Source of the DNA: Candidatus Giovannonibacteria bacterium | GTDB lineage: Bacteria > Patescibacteriota > Minisyncoccia > UBA11713 > 2-01-FULL-45-33 | NCBI GenBank assembly: GCA_016176295.1 | Contig: JACOXN010000006.1 | Coordinates: 18,466 to 82,465, forward strand | Reading direction: 5' to 3' | DNA: 64,000 bases | Shown: positions 2,333 to 62,205 of the stretch, piece after piece | Position numbering within the stretch: the stretch's first letter is position 1 | How the letters are laid out: every line of letters begins with the position of its first letter | Translations under genes and position numbers: made by a program | Notes under the pieces: generated by a model | The model's input: the letters and a program-made list of their open reading frames with translations, nothing else | What the model was told of the DNA's origin: nothing | Database searches by the model: none

Positions 2333-3883
2333 ATGGCGCTTAAACTCCATTCCGCGGAAGTCCTGGGACTTTCGGGAAAAATAATCGATGTGGAAATAGA
2401 TCTCTCGCCGGGGCTCTTCAGTTTTTCCATTGTAGGACTCGCCGATAAATCCGTTTCCGAATCGAAAGAACGGATTTCCGCCGCCATCAAAAGTTTCGGA
2501 GCCAAGTCTCCCCAGAAAAAAAACCAGCGTGTCGTTATATCGCTGGCTCCGGCCGATCTTAAAAAAGAAGGACCGGTTTTTGACCTCGCCATCGCGCTCG
2601 CTTATCTTCTGGCTTCCAAACAGGCTAAATTCGAACCAAAAGGAAAAATTTTCCTGGGGGAGCTGGCTTTGGACGGCACGCTTCGACCGATAAAAGGCGT
2701 ACTCGCACTGGCGGAAGAAGCAGCCCGGGCCGGGTTTAAAGAATTTTACATACCGAAAGGTAACGGAGAGGAAGCGGCCCTTGTTTCAAATATTAAAGTT
2801 TATGAGGTAGAGTCTCTTGCAGACACCGTGGAGCATCTGGAAGGGAAAGTCGAGATACCGGAAGTTCCCAAAACAAAAATTATTTATGAGGATTCGAATT
2901 CGATTTTGGATTTTTCCGATATCAAAGGGCAGGAATCCGCCAAGCGCGGCCTGGAAATCGCGGCGGCCGGTGCCCACAACGCTCTGATGGTGGGTCCTCC
3001 CGGCACCGGGAAAACAATGCTCGCCCGCGCTTTCGCCTCCATACTTCCTCCTCTTTCACGCGAAGAAATTTTGGAGGTAACAAAAATTCATTCAATTGCC
3101 GGCGCTTTAAAAGACGCTAACACGGTAGTTAAAGAGAGGCCTTTCCGAAATCCGCACCATACTTCCTCCTATGTTTCCATCGTGGGCGGGGGAACATACC
3201 CGAAGCCGGGCGAAGCAACCTTGGCGCACCGGGGAGTATTGTTCCTGGACGAGTTCGCGGAGTTCGAAAGGAAAGTCATAGAAGCTTTGCGCCAGCCTTT
3301 GGAAGATAAAATGATAACCGTCTCCCGCGCCAAAGCTACGCTTAATTTTCCCGCGCAGATAATGATGATACTCGCTATGAATCCCTGCCCCTGCGGCAAC
3401 TTAGGCTCACAAAAAAGCTGCATCTGCTCTCCTTCGGCTGTCAGCCGCTACCAAAGAAAAATTTCAGGACCCATTGTTGACCGCATCGACCTCTGGCTCG
3501 GAGTTTATGCGATAGATCATAAAAAATTGGAAGATGACCCGTCGGCCCAAAGCCTTGAAAAATCAAAAGCCATCCGCGCCCGCGTTGAAAAAGCGCGCGA
3601 GACCCAAAAGAAAAGGTTTGCGGGAACTAACCTGCCTGCCGGTAGGCAAGGAATAGTTTCCAACTCAGAAATGTCGGTGAGGGAGATAAAAAAATATTGC
3701 GAGCTGGATAACGAATCCAAATCCATATTACAGCAGGCCGCGGCCCGGCTCGACCTTTCCCCGCGCTCGTACCACCGCGTCATTAAGCTCGCCCGCACCA
3801 TAGCCGACCTCGCAGGAGAAAAGAATATAAAAAAAGAACACCTTCTGGAAGCTCTCCAATACAGACCGAAACAGTTGGTATAA
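2333..3883 (+). CDS. comM: Mg-chelatase-like AAA+ protein ComM/YifB
   Basis: N-terminal Lon-like domain (IVGLADKSVSESKERI), Walker A GPPGTGKTM, and C-terminal ...SYHRVIKLARTIADL. Confidence 0.9.
   Translation: MALKLHSAEVLGLSGKIIDVEIDLSPGLFSFSIVGLADKSVSESKERISAAIKSFGAKSPQKKNQRVVISLAPADLKKEGPVFDLAIALAYLLASKQAKFEPKGKIFLGELALDGTLRPIKGVLALAEEAARAGFKEFYIPKGNGEEAALVSNIKVYEVESLADTVEHLEGKVEIPEVPKTKIIYEDSNSILDFSDIKGQESAKRGLEIAAAGAHNALMVGPPGTGKTMLARAFASILPPLSREEILEVTKIHSIAGALKDANTVVKERPFRNPHHTSSYVSIVGGGTYPKPGEATLAHRGVLFLDEFAEFERKVIEALRQPLEDKMITVSRAKATLNFPAQIMMILAMNPCPCGNLGSQKSCICSPSAVSRYQRKISGPIVDRIDLWLGVYAIDHKKLEDDPSAQSLEKSKAIRARVEKARETQKKRFAGTNLPAGRQGIVSNSEMSVREIKKYCELDNESKSILQQAAARLDLSPRSYHRVIKLARTIADLAGEKNIKKEHLLEALQYRPKQLV
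3631..3651. repeat. GC-rich palindromic element copy (CCTGCCTGCCGGTAGGCAAGG), in frame inside comM
   Basis: Translates as LPAGRQG. It falls in a segment about 8 aa longer than my recalled E. coli ComM sequence. The right arm is degenerate. Confidence 0.6.
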
Positions 3884-53130: not shown

Positions 53131-53943
53131 ATGAGAAAAAAATCCAAGCCGAAAAATGGCGGCAAATCCGAGTCTACGGGTTATTTCAGGCACGAAACTC
53201 TATCCTGCTGGAAAGCGGCAACGCTTGCCGCGTTGTTCGTTAAAGAAGTGCATACGCAATTCGGCGACATGAGAAACCAGCTCGAAAGGTCCGTTTTGTC
53301 GATAACCAATAACATTGCGGAAGCCTGCGCCCGTCATCAGCACGGCGGGAAAAATATTGAGAATCTTTTTTCCCATGGAAACGGTTCCCTGGGCGAGACC
53401 GCGAATATGCTGTTTTTTTCTTTCCGTCTTCACGCAAAAGCCGCGGCTTCAAGAGACGACCGGGTCTTCAATGACTTCGTGAGGGAGATACTTCTCAAGG
53501 CTTTTCATGAGCTGGATTGCATTATCTCCAATCCCAGCCTTATGGATAGCCCGATGTCCATCGGTATTTTCAAAGCCGATGAAATCGTGCTCTTAGATCA
53601 CATTTTACGGGAAATAAATTCAGGAAAGAACGTGCGGCAGGTCATGGGCGATATTTTCGTAGATGAAAAGCAGACCAAGTCGGAGAACAACGGCTCGGCG
53701 CCAAAGGATATCTGTCTGGAATGCGGCAGAAAAACCGAGCTGCAGGATGGAAATTTACACAATGTCCTCATGGTGACCGAACTCTCAAAGTCGAAGATAA
53801 ATTGTCCGATCTTTGTCTGCATCAGATGTTCCAAAAGAAAGGGCGTGCCTATAGAAATGATTCAAGGTTCCATCGTTTTTCGGCCAAAGCCGGACGGTGA
53901 ATCACAGGCTGATTTGCAGACCGGAGGCACCCTGATCAATTAG
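53131..53943 (+). CDS. Four-helix-bundle (23S rRNA IVS / Avd-like family) domain fused to a C-terminal zinc-ribbon region
   Basis: N-terminal QLERSVLSITNNIAEACAR...NGSLGETANMLFF matches the four-helix-bundle family signature. C-terminal CLECGRK...CPIFVCIRCSKRKG. TTGACA-N18-TAAGAT promoter and GGGGGAGAG SD lie upstream. Confidence 0.6.
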   Translation: MRKKSKPKNGGKSESTGYFRHETLSCWKAATLAALFVKEVHTQFGDMRNQLERSVLSITNNIAEACARHQHGGKNIENLFSHGNGSLGETANMLFFSFRLHAKAAASRDDRVFNDFVREILLKAFHELDCIISNPSLMDSPMSIGIFKADEIVLLDHILREINSGKNVRQVMGDIFVDEKQTKSENNGSAPKDICLECGRKTELQDGNLHNVLMVTELSKSKINCPIFVCIRCSKRKGVPIEMIQGSIVFRPKPDGESQADLQTGGTLIN

Positions 53944-55980: not shown

Positions 55981-56078
55981 CCTAGAAATATGGGGTTCCC
56001 TCATATTTTTGGGCTAATGGCTCTTTGGTAATTAACAGGACGAGTTCCGGAAGGAACGTGTCCAGAAGGATAAGGACG

Positions 56079-56729
56079 ATGTCTAGTCTCTACTCAGTAG
56101 GTCAGATGAATCAGCTTGGCGATTCGTTGGAAGCAGAAGGATTTGCAACCAGCGACGTTACGCAACTCACTCAATATAGCAACATTGCTGGAATAAAAGC
56201 TGTACTCAACGGTTCAGCTAAGATTGTTCCGATCAGCGAAGACACCAGCCGATTTATTACCCTCAACGAGACCACAATCGCGGTAAACCTCGCCGCAGCG
56301 CCAAAACTTCCGTTCAATGGAGCGGAAGTTGAACAGAATGTCGGCGAGGGTTGGGCGATTCTTGAGAAGCGAACCGAAGGTTTGTATGTCAACGGCGAAA
56401 AAATGGTTCTCTATCTGTCCAAGCGTCAGAAGAACGGAAAACAGTTAAAAGGTTTTGAGCTTCGTGAAGAGCTGACCGGAAAACCTGTCCTCAACGCAAG
56501 TGTTCTTGATGCTCTTTTGGCCAATACCCACCTCATACCGGAAGATTGGAAGAGAGATGAAAATGGCAATGCCATATACATTTTCTTTTGGGCATCGATT
56601 TTTCGCGGTTTGGGTGGCTGCTTCTGCGTCCGTTGCCTCTGCTTCTGCGGCGTTCGGTGGTATTCGCACTACGATTGGCTCAACTACGGTTGGTATGGCG
56701 ACGTTCCGGCCGCTCTCCGCGCAAGTTAG
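56079..56729 (+). CDS. DGR target (variable) protein with a C-terminal VR
   Basis: Start at MSSLYSVGQ after an AGGA SD. The C-terminus ...IYIFFWASIFRGLGGCFCVRCLCFCGVRWYSHYDWLNYGWYGDVPAALRAS carries the VR. No signal peptide is seen. Confidence 0.8.
   Translation: MSSLYSVGQMNQLGDSLEAEGFATSDVTQLTQYSNIAGIKAVLNGSAKIVPISEDTSRFITLNETTIAVNLAAAPKLPFNGAEVEQNVGEGWAILEKRTEGLYVNGEKMVLYLSKRQKNGKQLKGFELREELTGKPVLNASVLDALLANTHLIPEDWKRDENGNAIYIFFWASIFRGLGGCFCVRCLCFCGVRWYSHYDWLNYGWYGDVPAALRAS
56603..56724 (+). repeat. DGR variable repeat (VR)
   Basis: Gap-free alignment to 57055-57176. Of 122 positions, 22 differ, and all 22 are A in the TR. Confidence 0.9.
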
Positions 56730-56780
56730 CGCTTGGGACTTTGAACATTGGATCTATTAAATCCTTTGCGCTTTGTCCTC

Positions 56781-56813
56781 GGCCACACGCCATCTGGTGT
56801 GTGGCCGTTTTTT
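56781..56813 (+). terminator. Rho-independent terminator after the DGR target gene
   Basis: GGCCACAC-gccatctg-GTGTGTGGCC followed by TTTTTT. Confidence 0.7.
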
Positions 56814-57054
56814 GTGATAAAATTATAAGGGTAATAGGTGAATACGAGGAAGACCAAGGTTTTCTTCTACCGAATCCAGTATCCATACATCGGGAATATA
56901 CGCGATTACGGTTTCGGATAGGGTGGTGTATGCAGAAACTTCATAAAAAATGAAAATACTTGGTATAGAGCATTAGGGCATTTAATATGCCGAATAAGAT
57001 ACAATCCTGAGAGTATTCAAAGGATGGTGGTACTGAAGATGCCCCATACATAAA

Positions 57055-57176
57055 TCGCGATTTGAGTGACAACTTCTACGTCCGTTGCCTCTACTTCAAC
57101 AACGATCGGTGGTATTCGAACTACAATTGGCTCAACAACGATTGGAATGACAACAATCCGGACGCTCTCCGCGCAA
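57055..57176 (+). repeat. DGR template repeat (TR)
   Basis: Contains 33 adenines, many in AAC codons (in-frame reading ...FYVRCLYFNNDRWYSNYNWLNNDWNDNNPDALRA). Weaker, non-mutagenic homology to the target extends upstream to about 57039. Confidence 0.9.
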
Positions 57177-57182
57177 CTCTTT

Positions 57183-57473
57183 TCATTTCTCTCCCCCCTT
57201 GGGAGAGTTTTGCTTGTCTCGAGCAGTGTCGAGAGATTTTGAAAGCTGTCCTCGCCATCCTCCCAGCATTTTGCCTATTTCTTCCATTTTTACAGATAGG
57301 GCAATATATTTTTTGTTATCAATTGATTTCGTTTCCCATAAAACCATTAGCAATATTTTCAAAGTATCCGTCTTACGGATCGCAACTTTTACGTATGGCA
57401 ACTTTTCTTCTTTGGAAAGAAAACTAGCTATGGCTATAAATTCAATTATTTCAATAAAAAGATTGTCGGAAAT
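57183..57473 (-). pseudogene. Avd-like four-helix-bundle accessory gene, N-terminally truncated, opposite strand
   Basis: C-terminal ...KKYIALSVKMEEIGKMLGGWRGQ matches the Avd/four-helix-bundle tail. The open frame covers only ~96 codons, with a single TTG start leaving 72 aa. Helix 1 is missing. Confidence 0.55.
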
Positions 57474-57866
57474 TTAATCTCCCAACTTTTCGTGAATATT
57501 TATATGAATGAGTTCGATTAATTTATGAAGCATAAACTCAAAGCAAAGTACTATATCCGATACGCAGACGATTTTGTTGTTTTGTCGGATGACAGGATTG
57601 CGCTTTTAAACCTAATCCGCCCGATTAAGAAATTATTACAAGAAAGACTAAAATTGGAACTTCATCCTAAAAAATTGTCGATAAATACAATTGCTTCAGG
57701 AATTGATTTTCTGGGCTGGGTTAATTTTACGGATCATAGGATATTGAGAACCAAAACCAAGCAGAGGATGTTTAAGAAGCTTAGTGAGAAAAATCTCTCG
57801 TCTTATTTAGGTATGCTAAAACATGGCAATGGACATAAAATCAGCCGTGTTATAATGAAAGCATGA
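57453..57866 (+). pseudogene. DGR-type reverse transcriptase, 3' fragment only (motifs 4-7), with an in-frame TAA
   Basis: KKIVGNLISQLFVNIYMNEFD-TAA(57519-57521)-FMKHKLKAKYYIRYADDFVVLSDD...GIDFLGW. Nothing resembling motifs 1-3 lies upstream in this frame. The stop overlaps the ruvA ATG (ATGA). Confidence 0.75.
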
Positions 57867-58429
57867 TTGGGCATCTTGAGGGGGAAATACTGTTTAAGGG
57901 AGAAAAATACATTATTTTAGACGTCGGTGGAGTGGGTTACAAAGTTTTCACCAACTCTTCCGCCAAAGGTTTGGAGTTAAAATCCAAAGTTAAACTCTGG
58001 ACGCATCTCAACGTCAAGGAAGACGCTCTCGACCTTTATGGTTTTGCGAATAAAAGCGAGCTCGAATTTTTTGAGCTTTTAATTTCCATCTCCGGCATCG
58101 GACCCAAATCAGCTTTGGGTGTTTTGGCGCTGGCGCCCGTGGATATTTTAAAGCGCGCCATCGGAGCGGGCGATACTTCTTATCTCACCAAAGTTTCCGG
58201 CATTGGCAGAAAAATGTCCGAGAAGATAGTTTTGGAATTAAAAGATAAAATGGGTTACGGCAAGGTTTCCGACGGGGGAGAAGGGCTTAAAGAAGATGCC
58301 GATATTCTGGATGCTCTCCTTTCGCTGGGCTACACACAGAGGGATGCCAGGGAGATGATACAAAAAATACCGGCAGAAATATTGGGCCGGGAAAAGAGAT
58401 TAAAAGAAGCGTTAAAAAAACCGGCATGA
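57863..58429 (+). CDS. ruvA: Holliday junction DNA helicase subunit RuvA
   Basis: MIGHLEGEILFKGEKYIILDVGGVGYKV plus HhH motifs (ISGIGPKSA, VSGIGRKMSE). Confidence 0.92.
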   Translation: MIGHLEGEILFKGEKYIILDVGGVGYKVFTNSSAKGLELKSKVKLWTHLNVKEDALDLYGFANKSELEFFELLISISGIGPKSALGVLALAPVDILKRAIGAGDTSYLTKVSGIGRKMSEKIVLELKDKMGYGKVSDGGEGLKEDADILDALLSLGYTQRDAREMIQKIPAEILGREKRLKEALKKPA

Positions 58430-58472
58430 ATTTTATTTGCGGGTAATTTAACCATATAACTATTTAACTAAC

Positions 58473-58988
58473 TTGGCTTGGTGGGACATATTCACTCGAT
58501 ATTTGAAAGAATCCGGGCTGGAGCCCGCGGAGGATAAGTCTGAAGCCGTTTCCAATGTGTCTCTGAAGTTAAGAACATTCCGGCAAATGCTGGATGATGC
58601 TTTCTTTGACGAAATGGTGGACATCCTTTATTTTTGGCTGGGTGTTTTTACATATGTATATTTCTTTACCATTGCGCTTTTGTATTTCGGCTCGATACCC
58701 TATACCCAGACCGTTTCTTCCAAAATAATCTCGGCGTTGGCCGAGCCCTATCTTGGCGCCGTCGGTATTTACACTATTCTCAAAGAGACCAGAAAGCGAA
58801 AAAGGAGGCTATCTCCGCGCCACTGGGGGGAGTTATTCGTCGGCGGATGGCTGGCACTTCTGCTTTCCGCTTCGTTTCTGGCTTTTTTCTTTGACGTTTA
58901 TACTTTAAATAATATACTTGAGGATATTATCACTATTTCGCTCGCTGTCGCCATTATTTATGTCGGAGGTTCCGTGCACAAACCATAG
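58473..58988 (+). CDS. Integral membrane protein, unknown function
   Basis: Four hydrophobic helices. TTG start is uncertain. Confidence 0.45.
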   Translation: MAWWDIFTRYLKESGLEPAEDKSEAVSNVSLKLRTFRQMLDDAFFDEMVDILYFWLGVFTYVYFFTIALLYFGSIPYTQTVSSKIISALAEPYLGAVGIYTILKETRKRKRRLSPRHWGELFVGGWLALLLSASFLAFFFDVYTLNNILEDIITISLAVAIIYVGGSVHKP

Positions 58989-58990
58989 CC

Positions 58991-60202
58991 ATGCTGGATA
59001 GGATATTCTACATCGGGAAGAAAATAATTCCCCGGCCGGTTTTTGTTTTTTTCCAGCCTTATTATCATTGGTCACTTTCGCATTTTGCGGCGCTTTTTTA
59101 CGGTTTTCCCTCCCGGCACATCGTCGTTATCGGGGTCACTGGAACCAACGGAAAAACGACGGTGACGCATCTTCTTTCTAAAATCTTGGAAAGTTCGGGC
59201 TTAAAGGCGGCATCCGTCTCTTCACTCCGTTTTAAAATAAAGGAGAAAGAATGGAAGAACGAGCTCAAAATGACCATGCCAGGAAGGTTCAAAGTGCAGA
59301 AATTTTTAAGGGAGGCGGTACGCGCCGGCTGCACACACGCGATTCTGGAAGTCACTTCCGAAGGAATCAAGCAGTTCAGACACTCGGGTATAAATTTTCA
59401 TATGGCGGTCCTCACGAATGTTACCCCGGAGCATATTGAGTCGCACGGCGGATTCGAAAAATACCGGGCCGCAAAGGCCGAGCTCTTCAGGCGCGCTAAA
59501 ATCCACGTGCTGAACAAGGAAGACGAAAATTTCGAATATTTTAACGTCATCCCGGCGGAGAAAAAAATAATTTATACAAAAGAAAGTTTGCCCCGGAACA
59601 TACGTCTTAAACTTCCCGGAGATTTTAACCTTTCCAATGCCGCGGCCGTATACGTTGCGGCGCGCGAATTCGACGTTTCCGAAGAAAAGATAAAAGAAGT
59701 GCTGGAAAAAACGGAATTCATAGACGGGCGGCTGGAATTCGTCGTGCGCGAACCGTTTTCGGTGGTAGTTGATTATGCACATACCCCGGATGCGCTCCAG
59801 AAGGTTTATGAAACGTTAAGCACACAAGATTCAAGATTAATTTGTGTTCTTGGGGCGGCAGGTGGAGGTAGGGATAAGTGGAAAAGGCGCGAATTTGGTA
59901 AAATTGCCGCGAAGCACTGCGGAGAAATAATTTTAACCAACGAAGATCCATATGACGAAGACCCCGGCCAAATACTCTCTGAAATAGAATCCGGAGTTTC
60001 CAATTTTAAATTTCCAATTTCCAAAATTCTGGATCGAAAAGATGCAATTAGAGAAGCGTTAAAGCTAGCCAAATCTGGTGACACTGTAATTATCACGGGA
60101 AAGGGCGCGGAACCATGGCTTATGGGTCCCAATGGAACAAAAATTCCCTGGGATGACAGGGAAGTTGTTCGGGAAGAACTAAGAAATTTAAAATTTAAAT
60201 GA
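58991..60202 (+). CDS. murE: Mur ligase, MurE-like (short form lacking the N-terminal domain)
   Basis: GVTGTNGKTT, TNVTPEHIESHG and VDYAHTPDAL motifs. Confidence 0.8.
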   Translation: MLDRIFYIGKKIIPRPVFVFFQPYYHWSLSHFAALFYGFPSRHIVVIGVTGTNGKTTVTHLLSKILESSGLKAASVSSLRFKIKEKEWKNELKMTMPGRFKVQKFLREAVRAGCTHAILEVTSEGIKQFRHSGINFHMAVLTNVTPEHIESHGGFEKYRAAKAELFRRAKIHVLNKEDENFEYFNVIPAEKKIIYTKESLPRNIRLKLPGDFNLSNAAAVYVAAREFDVSEEKIKEVLEKTEFIDGRLEFVVREPFSVVVDYAHTPDALQKVYETLSTQDSRLICVLGAAGGGRDKWKRREFGKIAAKHCGEIILTNEDPYDEDPGQILSEIESGVSNFKFPISKILDRKDAIREALKLAKSGDTVIITGKGAEPWLMGPNGTKIPWDDREVVREELRNLKFK

Positions 60203-60693
60203 AAAATATATATTTGGTCATGCACAATATCCGGAGCCTGCACAATGTAGGCTCGATGTTCCGGACGGCGGACGCTATGGGGGTGAAAAAAATATATCTC
60301 ACCGGTTACACGCCCGCACCTTTCGATATTTTCGGAAAAGTCAGGAAAGATTTTCAGAAGACGGCATTGGGAGCTGAAAGTTACGTGGAGTGGGAAAAAA
60401 TAAAAAGCATCAACTCGGTTTTTAAAAAAGTAAAGAAAGAAAAAGTTTTTATTGCGGCTCTTGAGCAGGCAAAAAACAGCATTTTGCTCTGTCATTTTGC
60501 AACAAAATCATTACTTAGCAATCCGATTGCTAAGCGTGGGGTTGCGGTAGTGGTTGGAAATGAAGTAAAAGGAATTTCACCCGCAATCCTCAAAAAATGT
60601 GACAGAATCCTTGAAATCCCGATGCTTGGCAAAAAAGAATCTTTGAATGTTTCTGTGGCGGCGGGTATCGCGCTTTATGCATTCTCAAGGTAA
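60199..60693 (+). CDS. SpoU/TrmH-family RNA 2'-O-methyltransferase
   Basis: NIRSLHNVGSMFRTADAMG, VVGNEVKGIS and LNVSVAAGIALY motifs. Confidence 0.85.
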   Translation: MKNIYLVMHNIRSLHNVGSMFRTADAMGVKKIYLTGYTPAPFDIFGKVRKDFQKTALGAESYVEWEKIKSINSVFKKVKKEKVFIAALEQAKNSILLCHFATKSLLSNPIAKRGVAVVVGNEVKGISPAILKKCDRILEIPMLGKKESLNVSVAAGIALYAFSR

Positions 60694-60702
60694 AATGACG
60701 GT

Positions 60703-60906
60703 ATGGCTTCAAATGAACAATTGCCCGACCTCTTTGGGGAGAAACACGAAGACTTAAGCAAGTTAAATCCGATCCGGAAGGTTTTGCGCCAGATGGAAAT
60801 ATTGGAGGAAGAAAGAAAAAAGAAAACCGAAGAAGCTAAAAAAGAGGAGCGAAAAAAAATGACGGAAGAAAATCCTAATTTGAAGAATCTCCGCGGAGGC
60901 GTATAA
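60703..60906 (+). CDS. Small Lys/Glu-rich hypothetical protein
   Basis: 67-aa ORF in an otherwise tightly packed same-strand gene run. Confidence 0.35.
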   Translation: MASNEQLPDLFGEKHEDLSKLNPIRKVLRQMEILEEERKKKTEEAKKEERKKMTEENPNLKNLRGGV

Positions 60907-60914
60907 TTAAAAAT

Positions 60915-61316
60915 ATGCTAAGTATTTTCCCAAGTTTGCTTGATTATCAATTTTTTGCGCCTCTTATTCTGCGTCTGGCTTTGGCTGCTGTTTTTCTCGT
61001 GCATGGATACCCGAAGCTTTTCGGGGGCTTTAGCCACGCGGTTCATTTTTTCAATTCCTCCGGCATCAAGCCGGCCAAATTTTGGGTAGTAGTTGTGGGC
61101 TTAGCTGAATTATTAGGCGGCATACTGCTCCTTGCCGGTTTTCTGGTCCAGCCGGCGGCGTTTATTTTGGTTGCCAATCTTTTGGTGGCTATCTGGAAAG
61201 TTAAGTTTAAAGCGGGATTTGCGAACGGCTGGGAATTCGACCTGGTTCTCATTGCGATGCTTCTTTCGCTTTTGATACTGGGGCCCGGAGCCTATTCCAT
61301 AGATTTACCTCTATAA
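60915..61316 (+). CDS. DoxX-family membrane protein
   Basis: Four TM helices with the LRLALAAVFLVHGYPKLF signature. Confidence 0.8.
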   Translation: MLSIFPSLLDYQFFAPLILRLALAAVFLVHGYPKLFGGFSHAVHFFNSSGIKPAKFWVVVVGLAELLGGILLLAGFLVQPAAFILVANLLVAIWKVKFKAGFANGWEFDLVLIAMLLSLLILGPGAYSIDLPL

Positions 61317-61371
61317 ATACCTTCTCAAACGAATATTTGAAGAAGTGCCTCTGGCGTGGTACAAATTACTA

Positions 61372-62205
61372 ATGAACCCCGGAGACATAGTTTTTGATGT
61401 TGAGACAAAAAAGTCATTCGACGATGTGGGCGGGAAGGACCACATGGAAAAATTGGGGATATCTGTCATTGGCGCGTTCGTTTACGGAGAAAACCTGCCT
61501 GCCGGTCAGGCAGGCAAATATATTGCTTACGAAGAGCACGAACTTCCGGAATTTGAAAAACTTTTGAAAACCTCCGGGCGCGTCATCGGTTTCAATATTC
61601 ACCACTTCGATCTTCCGGTCCTCCAGCCCTACATGTCTTTCAATTTAAAAGAACTCTCAACCCTCGACCTGATGAACGACGTCGAAAAATCGGCCGGTTT
61701 CCGCATTTCGCTCGATAATCTTTGCGGAGCAACGTTCGGCCACAATAAGTCTTCCAACGGCATGCAGGCGATATATTGGTACCGCGAAGGGAAAATAGAG
61801 GAAATAAAAAAATATTGCATTAAGGATGTGGAGCTTACTAAAGACCTCTTTGAATACGGCGCAAAGAACGGCCAGGTGTTTTTTAATCCCAGGAACGCGC
61901 CGGGGAAAGTCGCTCTCTCCGTCGGGTGGGGGAACGCGGAAGTAAAAAATATCAGAAAAATATTGAAGCAGGGGCTGGAGGAGAAGCGAAGCATCGAACT
62001 TGAATATATCACAAAGCCTGAAGCTTCAGCCGAAGCCGTTTCTCGAAGGCTGGTTGATATTTACCGAATGAAGGGCGACTCGTTTGAGGGGTATTGCCAT
62101 TTGAGGAAAGCCGAGCGAGTATTCAAGATAGACAGGATAACGGACGCGCGCCTTACCAATAATGAATTTAAGTTAATTACGGATGTCCAAGGAAGTATTT
62201 TTTAA
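61372..62205 (+). CDS. RNase H-fold 3'-5' exonuclease domain fused to a WYL-like C-terminal domain
   Basis: FDVET..., GFNIHHFDLPVL and KYCIKDVELT (DEDD-type exonuclease motifs). C-terminal ...GDSFEGYCHLRKAERVFKIDRI is the WYL-domain pattern. An alternative GTG start lies at 61345. Confidence 0.65.
   Translation: MNPGDIVFDVETKKSFDDVGGKDHMEKLGISVIGAFVYGENLPAGQAGKYIAYEEHELPEFEKLLKTSGRVIGFNIHHFDLPVLQPYMSFNLKELSTLDLMNDVEKSAGFRISLDNLCGATFGHNKSSNGMQAIYWYREGKIEEIKKYCIKDVELTKDLFEYGAKNGQVFFNPRNAPGKVALSVGWGNAEVKNIRKILKQGLEEKRSIELEYITKPEASAEAVSRRLVDIYRMKGDSFEGYCHLRKAERVFKIDRITDARLTNNEFKLITDVQGSIF
61494..61514. repeat. GC-rich palindromic element copy (CCTGCCTG-CCGGT-CAGGCAGG), in frame inside the exonuclease gene
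   Basis: 21 nt, translated LPAGQAG, with perfect 8-bp arms. Confidence 0.7.

Follow-up and report, generated by a model that had tools for sequence, protein, structure and literature searches.

A DGR of architecture B3 in a Candidatus Giovannonibacteria genome, very likely inactivated recently by one deletion across the 5' ends of avd and the RT gene

The window analyzed here, a stretch of 64,000 nucleotides, derives from a short-read metagenome-assembled genome (MAG) of a groundwater Candidatus Giovannonibacteria (locus tags HYT01_*). It harbors a DGR which is embedded in an ordinary chromosomal neighborhood with rpsT, uvrB, ruvA and a gene encoding a Mur ligase. The elements follow each other in the order target gene with VR (+), TR (+), avd (-) and RT (+), which corresponds to the CPR-type B3 layout: the remnant of avd is located on the minus strand between the end of the TR at 57176 and the start of the RT remnant at 57468. 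The VR-to-TR spacing of 452 nt lies inside the range of the family. Architecture B3, TR-(avd)-RT, is present in 90% of the CPR DGRs (Wu et al., 2018, PMC5758913; set from Paul et al., 2017). The locus is a member of this known architecture and a dead copy of it; inactivation of such kind has already been described. All features are listed in Table 1.

Table 1. Features of the DGR locus and its downstream neighbor (positions refer to the 64,000-nt window).
Feature	Position	Strand	Description or evidence
DGR target gene	56079..56729	+	216 aa from ATG at 56079; HYT01_01860 / MBI2023291.1
VR	56598..56724	+	127-nt ungapped match to TR
GC-rich inverted repeat and T-run	56780..56807	+	55 nt downstream of VR
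Structured RNA domain directly 5' of TR	56835..57049	+	RNAalifold covariation
TR	57050..57176	+	127 nt, 37 adenines
TR 3' flank	57180..57216	+	Duplex arm, hairpin, TTTTGCTTG; terminator-like
Avd remnant, helices 2-4 and C-terminal tail	57183..57467	-	NF033474, clade HMM, tblastn
Deletion junction (...AAAGATTGTC / GGAAATTTAATC...)	57467..57468		Homology limits of Avd and RT
RT remnant, end of motif 4 to thumb	57468..57866	+	Pfam, clade HMM, PDB 8ub7, tblastn
ruvA, outside the DGR	57863..58429	+	Pfam RuvA_N, HHH_5, RuvA_C

The target ORF is intact and the VR forms its C-terminus, ending 5 nt ahead of the stop codon. An alternative TTG start at 56025 is also open, and an AAGGA-like ribosome-binding site occurs among the start candidates. 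The deduced protein has no Pfam match and its 90%-identity cluster comprises MBI2023291.1 alone; residues 15-234 align with the target protein of a related DGR (L012). VR and TR differ at 25 positions, all of which are adenines in the TR (25/37), and not one of the 90 non-A positions is changed, in line with the original prediction that the VR shows no non-A drift from the TR. The last 20 nt of both repeats are GC-rich and identical save one adenine. No further VR belonging to this TR was found anywhere in the 64-kb window. The GC-rich inverted repeat expected downstream of the VR and its IMH is provided by a hairpin with a 12-bp stem (9 GC pairs) and a 4-nt loop, followed by TTTTTTG, which is both the DGR-type hairpin after the IMH and the terminator of the target gene.

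Whereas target gene, VR and TR are complete, only the C-terminal 40% of a DGR RT is left on the plus strand. Within Pfam RVT_1 the match is confined to positions 121-203 of 205; a clade RT HMM of 350 positions, built from 65 full-length relatives, is covered from position 210 to 345. The best match among solved structures is the 328-aa RT of the Bordetella phage DGR (PDB 8ub7), of which residues 181-285 are aligned (E = 1.2e-13). When 12 full-length relatives were used as tblastn queries, the match started at 57465 in ten cases, and in the other two an upstream extension was obtained only via gapped, non-homologous sequence; the Val codon of the RT frame at 57465-57467 is the antisense of an Asp codon of Avd. 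The missing part, about 188 amino acids, comprises motifs 1-3 and the beginning of motif 4, while the end of motif 4 (GNLISQ), motifs 5-7 including YADD and the thumb are kept. The residues characteristic of the DGR clade of RTs ([LIV]GxxxSQ in motif 4, YxDD in motif 5) are recognizable as VGNLISQ and YADD, but the locus holds neither the complete set of motifs 1-7 nor an unbroken reading frame. The profile-HMM alignment therefore agrees with the earlier claim that RT homology begins only at motif 4 with none of motifs 1-3 upstream, and an arrangement with all seven motifs was not seen. Also as predicted, an in-frame TAA is located at 57519-57521, where 79 of 84 relatives carry Gln; the codon has changed from CAA to TAA. 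The 113-aa ORF which follows (57525-57866) is identical to the GenBank entry "hypothetical protein HYT01_01865", which is an RT pseudogene fragment.

Two other assignments of this sequence were considered and rejected. An RT N-terminal relic was suggested at 57360-57428 by a "domain" of the clade HMM, which scores -1.1 bits with an independent E-value of 35 and is antisense to well-conserved Avd sequence, and is therefore regarded as spurious; in the whole 64 kb neither tblastn nor HMM searches (E < 0.2) detected RT N-terminal sequence. An RT of a group II intron or a retron was taken into account because NCBIfam ranks group_II_RT_mat first. The scores stay far below the respective cut-offs (TIGR04416, 64.6 as compared with 300; retron St85, 31 as compared with 235), the genetic context consists of TR, VR and avd, and no Rfam group II intron or retron RNA was found.

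The Avd remnant comprises the C-terminal two thirds of the protein and runs on the minus strand from 57467 down to 57183. It matches positions 37-103 of 104 of the NCBIfam model DivGenRetAVD (NF033474) with a score of 36.1 (cut-off 80) and positions 42-119 of a 124-position clade HMM (E = 2.4e-37); the closest Avd compared, that of locus L033, is 74% identical, with the tblastn match starting at 57467. According to the alignment, helix 1, the following loop and the start codon, about 41 of the 124 profile positions, are missing, so that the four-helix bundle is incomplete. An Avd-like frame on the opposite strand without its first helix had been proposed, and the clade HMM and the alignment bear this out. 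Neither tblastn with 12 full-length RTs and 14 Avds (E < 0.2) nor the clade HMMs revealed any other RT or Avd in the 64 kb. A 270-aa ORF about 3 kb upstream of the DGR (53131-53943, +) encodes an N-terminal four-helix bundle assigned to the Avd-related family of 23S rRNA intervening-sequence proteins and a Cys-rich C-terminal region (PF05635, 35.0 bits; TIGR02436, 32.6 bits, over the cut-off). As a second Avd it was rejected, since the domain is generic and the clade Avd HMM gives no match.

For comparison, a set of related loci with one genome per species was compiled, which comprises at least 80 loci with RT relatives that are 57-69% identical to the RT remnant. In 68 of the 80 related CPR loci listed, avd is located on the opposite strand directly upstream of the RT gene. 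A VR(+)/TR(+) pair upstream of avd was detectable in 57 of those loci listed, in 56 of them in the order of the window, and these 57 pairs show 0-3 non-A differences between TR and VR. In the relatives, the distance between the end of the TR and the stop codon of avd ranges from a few to about 40 nt. The reading frames of avd and RT overlap head to head by 24 nt in L024 (756-779), L038, L059 and L080, and by 2 nt, as annotated, in L085 (2489-2492). Many avd frames of the relatives have no ATG near the conserved N-terminus. Just upstream of the RT ATG the relatives carry a G-rich tract that reads "PPPP" in the avd frame and is probably the ribosome-binding site of the RT gene.

At the junction in the window, the last Avd-homologous codon is GAC for Asp (57467-57465, minus strand) and the first RT-homologous codon is GGA for Gly (57468-57470). 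The original prediction had the two truncated ends meeting within about 20 nt; they do meet, and the spacing has to be corrected, as the remnants abut at 57467/57468 with zero bases between them. Projected onto 69 relatives, the breakpoints of the window delimit one contiguous missing block of 616-833 bp (median 706 bp). Since the two genes of the relatives meet or overlap at their 5' ends, one deletion explains both truncations, and with the abutting remnants, the single block and the ancestral B3 layout the idea of a single deletion is well founded. What the deletion was thought to have removed in addition, a divergent promoter region, has no counterpart in the related loci, which have essentially no intergenic region between the abutting or overlapping 5' ends. 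The breakpoints share no repeat or microhomology beyond 1-2 nt. Separate origins of the two truncations, by two deletions or by an inversion combined with a deletion, might be argued from the want of a close intact ortholog for comparison at the nucleotide level: among the best 120 of 1,442 RT relatives the next RT is only 69% identical. Nothing is left between the remnants, though, and both retain the ancestral B3 orientation, so that no inversion is needed; we regard two events as most improbable.

The junction was also found outside the MAG. Over positions 56025-61499 the Logan assembly of run SRR12113420 matches the window with 100% identity, and that of SRR12113424 does so over 56143-60423; both stretches include the junction. 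DGR loci contain repeats and are prone to misassembly, and the source is a short-read metagenome-assembled genome, from which it could be argued that the junction is a collapse or chimera and the true genes are full-length. Such an artefact has hardly any probability in our view: every base of the junction agrees between the MAG and two assemblies of different runs made with a different assembler; moreover, a collapse would call for a repeat at the two breakpoints, and none of more than a few bases is present there in the relatives, and the nonsense codon is independent evidence of a dead gene.

In four other runs the contigs stop short of the junction on both sides, ending at 57236-57323 or starting at 57553 or 57672. 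This could be expected if the deletion were only one allele of a mixed population, in which an intact avd-RT allele coexists and keeps diversifying while just the deleted haplotype was assembled. The contig ends, however, lie 85-230 nt off the junction and not at it, those checked carry Nextera adapter, and the region has a GC content of 27-33%; the breaks are therefore read as low coverage and not as a branch of the assembly graph, and were dismissed as a sign of heterogeneity. Apart from the remnant itself, no RT above 69% identity was present among the best 120 of 1,442 relatives, and a coexisting intact allele is accordingly considered very unlikely. In two Logan contigs, L088 and L084, the last 19 nt are untrimmed Nextera adapter (CTGTCTCTTATACACATCT); such ends could pass for sequence divergence.

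Taken together, these data make it very likely that a B3 DGR was recently inactivated by one deletion of about 0.7 kb across the 5' ends of avd and the RT gene. The deletion, probably an illegitimate one, would have struck across the head-to-head 5' ends and taken away helix 1 of Avd, RT motifs 1-3 and the first residues of motif 4, together with both start codons and whatever promoters or ribosome-binding sites lay in the overlap. RT motif 3 carries an aspartate of the catalytic triad, which is thus among the deleted residues. Neither remnant should be able to work after such an event, and the RT remnant also acquired the nonsense codon. The target gene and the cis RNA, i.e., 5' domain, TR, 3' duplex, hairpin/terminator and the hairpin after the VR, would have been left untouched, and the VR would be frozen in the last state written by the element. 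A VR that is frozen since the inactivation would still differ from the TR at adenines only, as observed.

How long ago this happened can be estimated from the decay of the remnants. Conservation of 95% or more among 84 relatives was found at 40 columns of the RT remnant. In two of them the window deviates, one being the junction codon, so that 38 of 39 columns are kept without it. The remaining change is Thr to Ile in NLTSQ, where Thr is invariant in the relatives; in addition, Phe is replaced by Leu at a 93%-conserved column. This amounts to about three abnormal changes in 133 codons, the nonsense codon included; for comparison, 79 of the 84 relatives deviate at no more than one of the 95% columns. 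The Avd remnant keeps all of the 14 columns that are at least 85% conserved. As a rough estimate with a wide error, neutral divergence since the inactivation is about 1%, which predicts some 1-2 non-A differences between TR and VR, and the zero observed is unremarkable. As the RT and Avd remnants have barely decayed, the inactivation appears to be recent, and of the two options offered originally, a recent stop of diversification or an RT encoded elsewhere, the first is favored by the change in 1 of 39 conserved RT columns and 0 of 14 Avd columns; with a recent deletion, a clean VR needs no trans-acting RT. The RT stop codon does overlap the ruvA start as ATGA (57863-57866), as had been noticed. 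The overlap was proposed to explain why the remnant is retained, but it constrains only the last few dozen bases; given the near absence of decay, the remnant seems to persist because it is young and not because it is selected.

The VR-TR "spacer" differs from what its name implies. About 210 nt directly upstream of the TR are conserved in about 55 related loci (e.g., L033:2670-2895 and L017:2640-2877) and fold into two similar hairpins and a 12-bp long-range helix between 56963-56974 and 57036-57049, which encloses two inner hairpins. RNAalifold assigned 38 pairs to this domain, 33 of them with compensatory changes; 96.4% of the cells are paired, as compared with 72% in shuffles and 39-51% when the partners are slid, and the covariation score is 0.81 versus 0.31. 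The window keeps 35 of the 38 pairs, and in the other 29 loci 0-4 pairs are broken (median 1). With conservation and a covarying fold in the relatives the spacer is no filler, and the domain is presumed to form the 5' part of the DGR template RNA. In Rfam 15 there was no match at E ≤ 1, apart from two sub-threshold matches attributable to chance. No description of the domain was found in the DGR literature compared, in which the published RNA survey covered only 40 nt upstream of the TRs (bioRxiv 10.1101/2023.10.23.563531). Being strongly covarying, the domain may merit a separate study in this clade of DGRs.

Downstream of the TR, a long-range duplex links both flanks: AAATGAAAA (56948-56956) pairs with TTTTCATTT (57180-57188), and in at least 18 loci there is covariation between the AAAUGAAGA-like motif of the 5' domain and its pairing partner, the bases 1-5 nt behind the TR. 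The duplex arm is followed by a hairpin (CTCTCCC/GGGAGAG, 57189-57207) and then by TTTTGCTTG. A hairpin with T-tract after the TR is present in 62 of 68 related loci, the background being 10% in shuffles and 6 of 68 loci on the opposite strand, and 56 distinct stems occur among these related loci. Read on the TR strand, the element resembles a terminator; it spans the stop codon of avd and is antisense to the C-terminal tail of Avd; in our reading, the conserved C-terminal "KQNSP" of Avd is explained by the antisense of this hairpin/T-tract element. Judged by their sequence, the cis RNA elements of the DGR are intact.

A further explanation starts from this intactness: the locus would still be diversified, with the RT and Avd of a second DGR elsewhere in the genome acting in trans on the template RNA (5' domain, TR and 3' elements). 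All cis elements are kept; the TR of the clade has its own hairpin/terminator ahead of avd, so that the template RNA is plausibly transcribed apart from the RT, and the TR 3' flanks are similar between different DGRs of the clade, which makes cross-recognition conceivable. With intact RNA parts and a terminator-like hairpin of the TR, trans use is mechanistically conceivable; some genomes do possess two such DGRs (L031/L038, L047/L076) or, as L081, two RTs, and zero non-A differences between TR and VR would fit as well. On the other hand, no second RT or Avd is encoded within the 64-kb window searched, no other protein of the same genome appears among the best 120 of 1,442 RT relatives, and the clean VR is already explained by the recency of the deletion. 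The three broken pairs of the RNA domain are at the high end of the range of the other loci. The consensus of the VR is also identical in seven assemblies, the window and six sequencing runs, a comparison at the consensus level in which low-frequency variants are invisible; VR, spacer and TR are alike identical in the six per-run assemblies and the MAG. Heterogeneity of the VR within or between populations, as expected for ongoing diversification, was thus not seen at this level in the seven assemblies, which points to a frozen VR. We therefore consider service in trans unlikely. If it were true, one RT would serve two TRs, the disappearance of RT and avd from this locus would be tolerated and not terminal, and modular sharing of a DGR RT between templates would be demonstrated, which would give the locus greater importance.

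With the recent deletion as the preferred reading, the locus can be compared with known systems. Order and orientation are those of the B3 DGRs of CPR bacteria, the hairpins after VR and TR, the latter with its terminator, are alike, and the remnants are 57-69% (RT) and up to 74% (Avd) identical to their counterparts; the window differs in the lack of about 700 bp over both 5' ends and in the nonsense codon of the RT. Inactivated DGRs with TR/VR differences at adenines only have been reported for Ruminococcus gnavus (nonsense mutation), Acaryochloris marina (IS insertion) and Bacteroides sp. 9_1_42FAA (RT frameshift), and all three were interpreted as very recent inactivations (Schillinger et al., 2012, PMC3521204, Fig. 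4). The DGR of the window shares with them the destroyed RT, the adenine-only differences of the VR and the same reading of recency, whereas its lesion is a deletion that would disable RT and Avd together, plus a nonsense codon. Such a joint loss by one deletion is possible only with the head-to-head placement of B3.

The DGR of Bordetella phage BPP-1 (mtd-avd-TR-brt; 8ub7 to 8ube) has adenine-specific TR/VR differences in common with the window. The Bordetella phage RNP contains a stem-loop downstream of the TR and a duplex between upstream and downstream sequences, which were predicted in other DGRs as well (bioRxiv 10.1101/2023.10.23.563531), and both a stem-loop after the TR and a pairing across the TR are found in the window, too. 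In BPP-1, however, avd precedes the TR on the same strand and most of the structured RNA follows the TR, whereas in the window avd is antisense and downstream of the TR and a large structured domain precedes the TR.

The locus represents a tidy, datable case of the death of a DGR in a reduced CPR genome. In the head-to-head layout of B3 one small deletion may kill both proteins and spare the RNA and the target gene. For annotation it follows that a clean TR/VR pair with differences at adenines only is not evidence of a working DGR.

Several observations were made on the relatives. The best 120 of the 1,442 matches to the 136-aa RT remnant are all 113-237 aa long and include fragments at contig ends, genes with frameshifts and genes with late start calls. 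Bit-score ranking with a short query appears to favor short targets, so that match length alone says nothing about a family of "short RTs"; the short top matches are probably due to this scoring bias and to contig ends. Some of them are located on long contigs and start with "MPLGNLTSQ", at the site of the breakpoint of the window, and a recurrent or programmed truncation at a fixed site was considered. It was rejected after examination of L085, which has an internal deletion and a frameshift, and of L086, which has many split genes, taken to be indel errors of the assembly. In L085 (2490-3417; Candidatus Nomurabacteria, DPQH01000019.1) about 25 aa of the RT between motifs 3 and 4 are missing and its frame is shifted, whereas Avd is complete; the RT frame of L041 (993-1577) is broken as well. 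Two DGRs of the clade occur in one MAG in the cases of L031 and L038 (JANNXY01) and of L047 and L076 (MGIS01), and L081 carries two RT genes within 4 kb (80-1084 and about 2900-3800). The DGR of L085 is flanked by ruvA and rpsT, genes which are also found near the DGR of the window, and this hints at an old shared chromosomal location.
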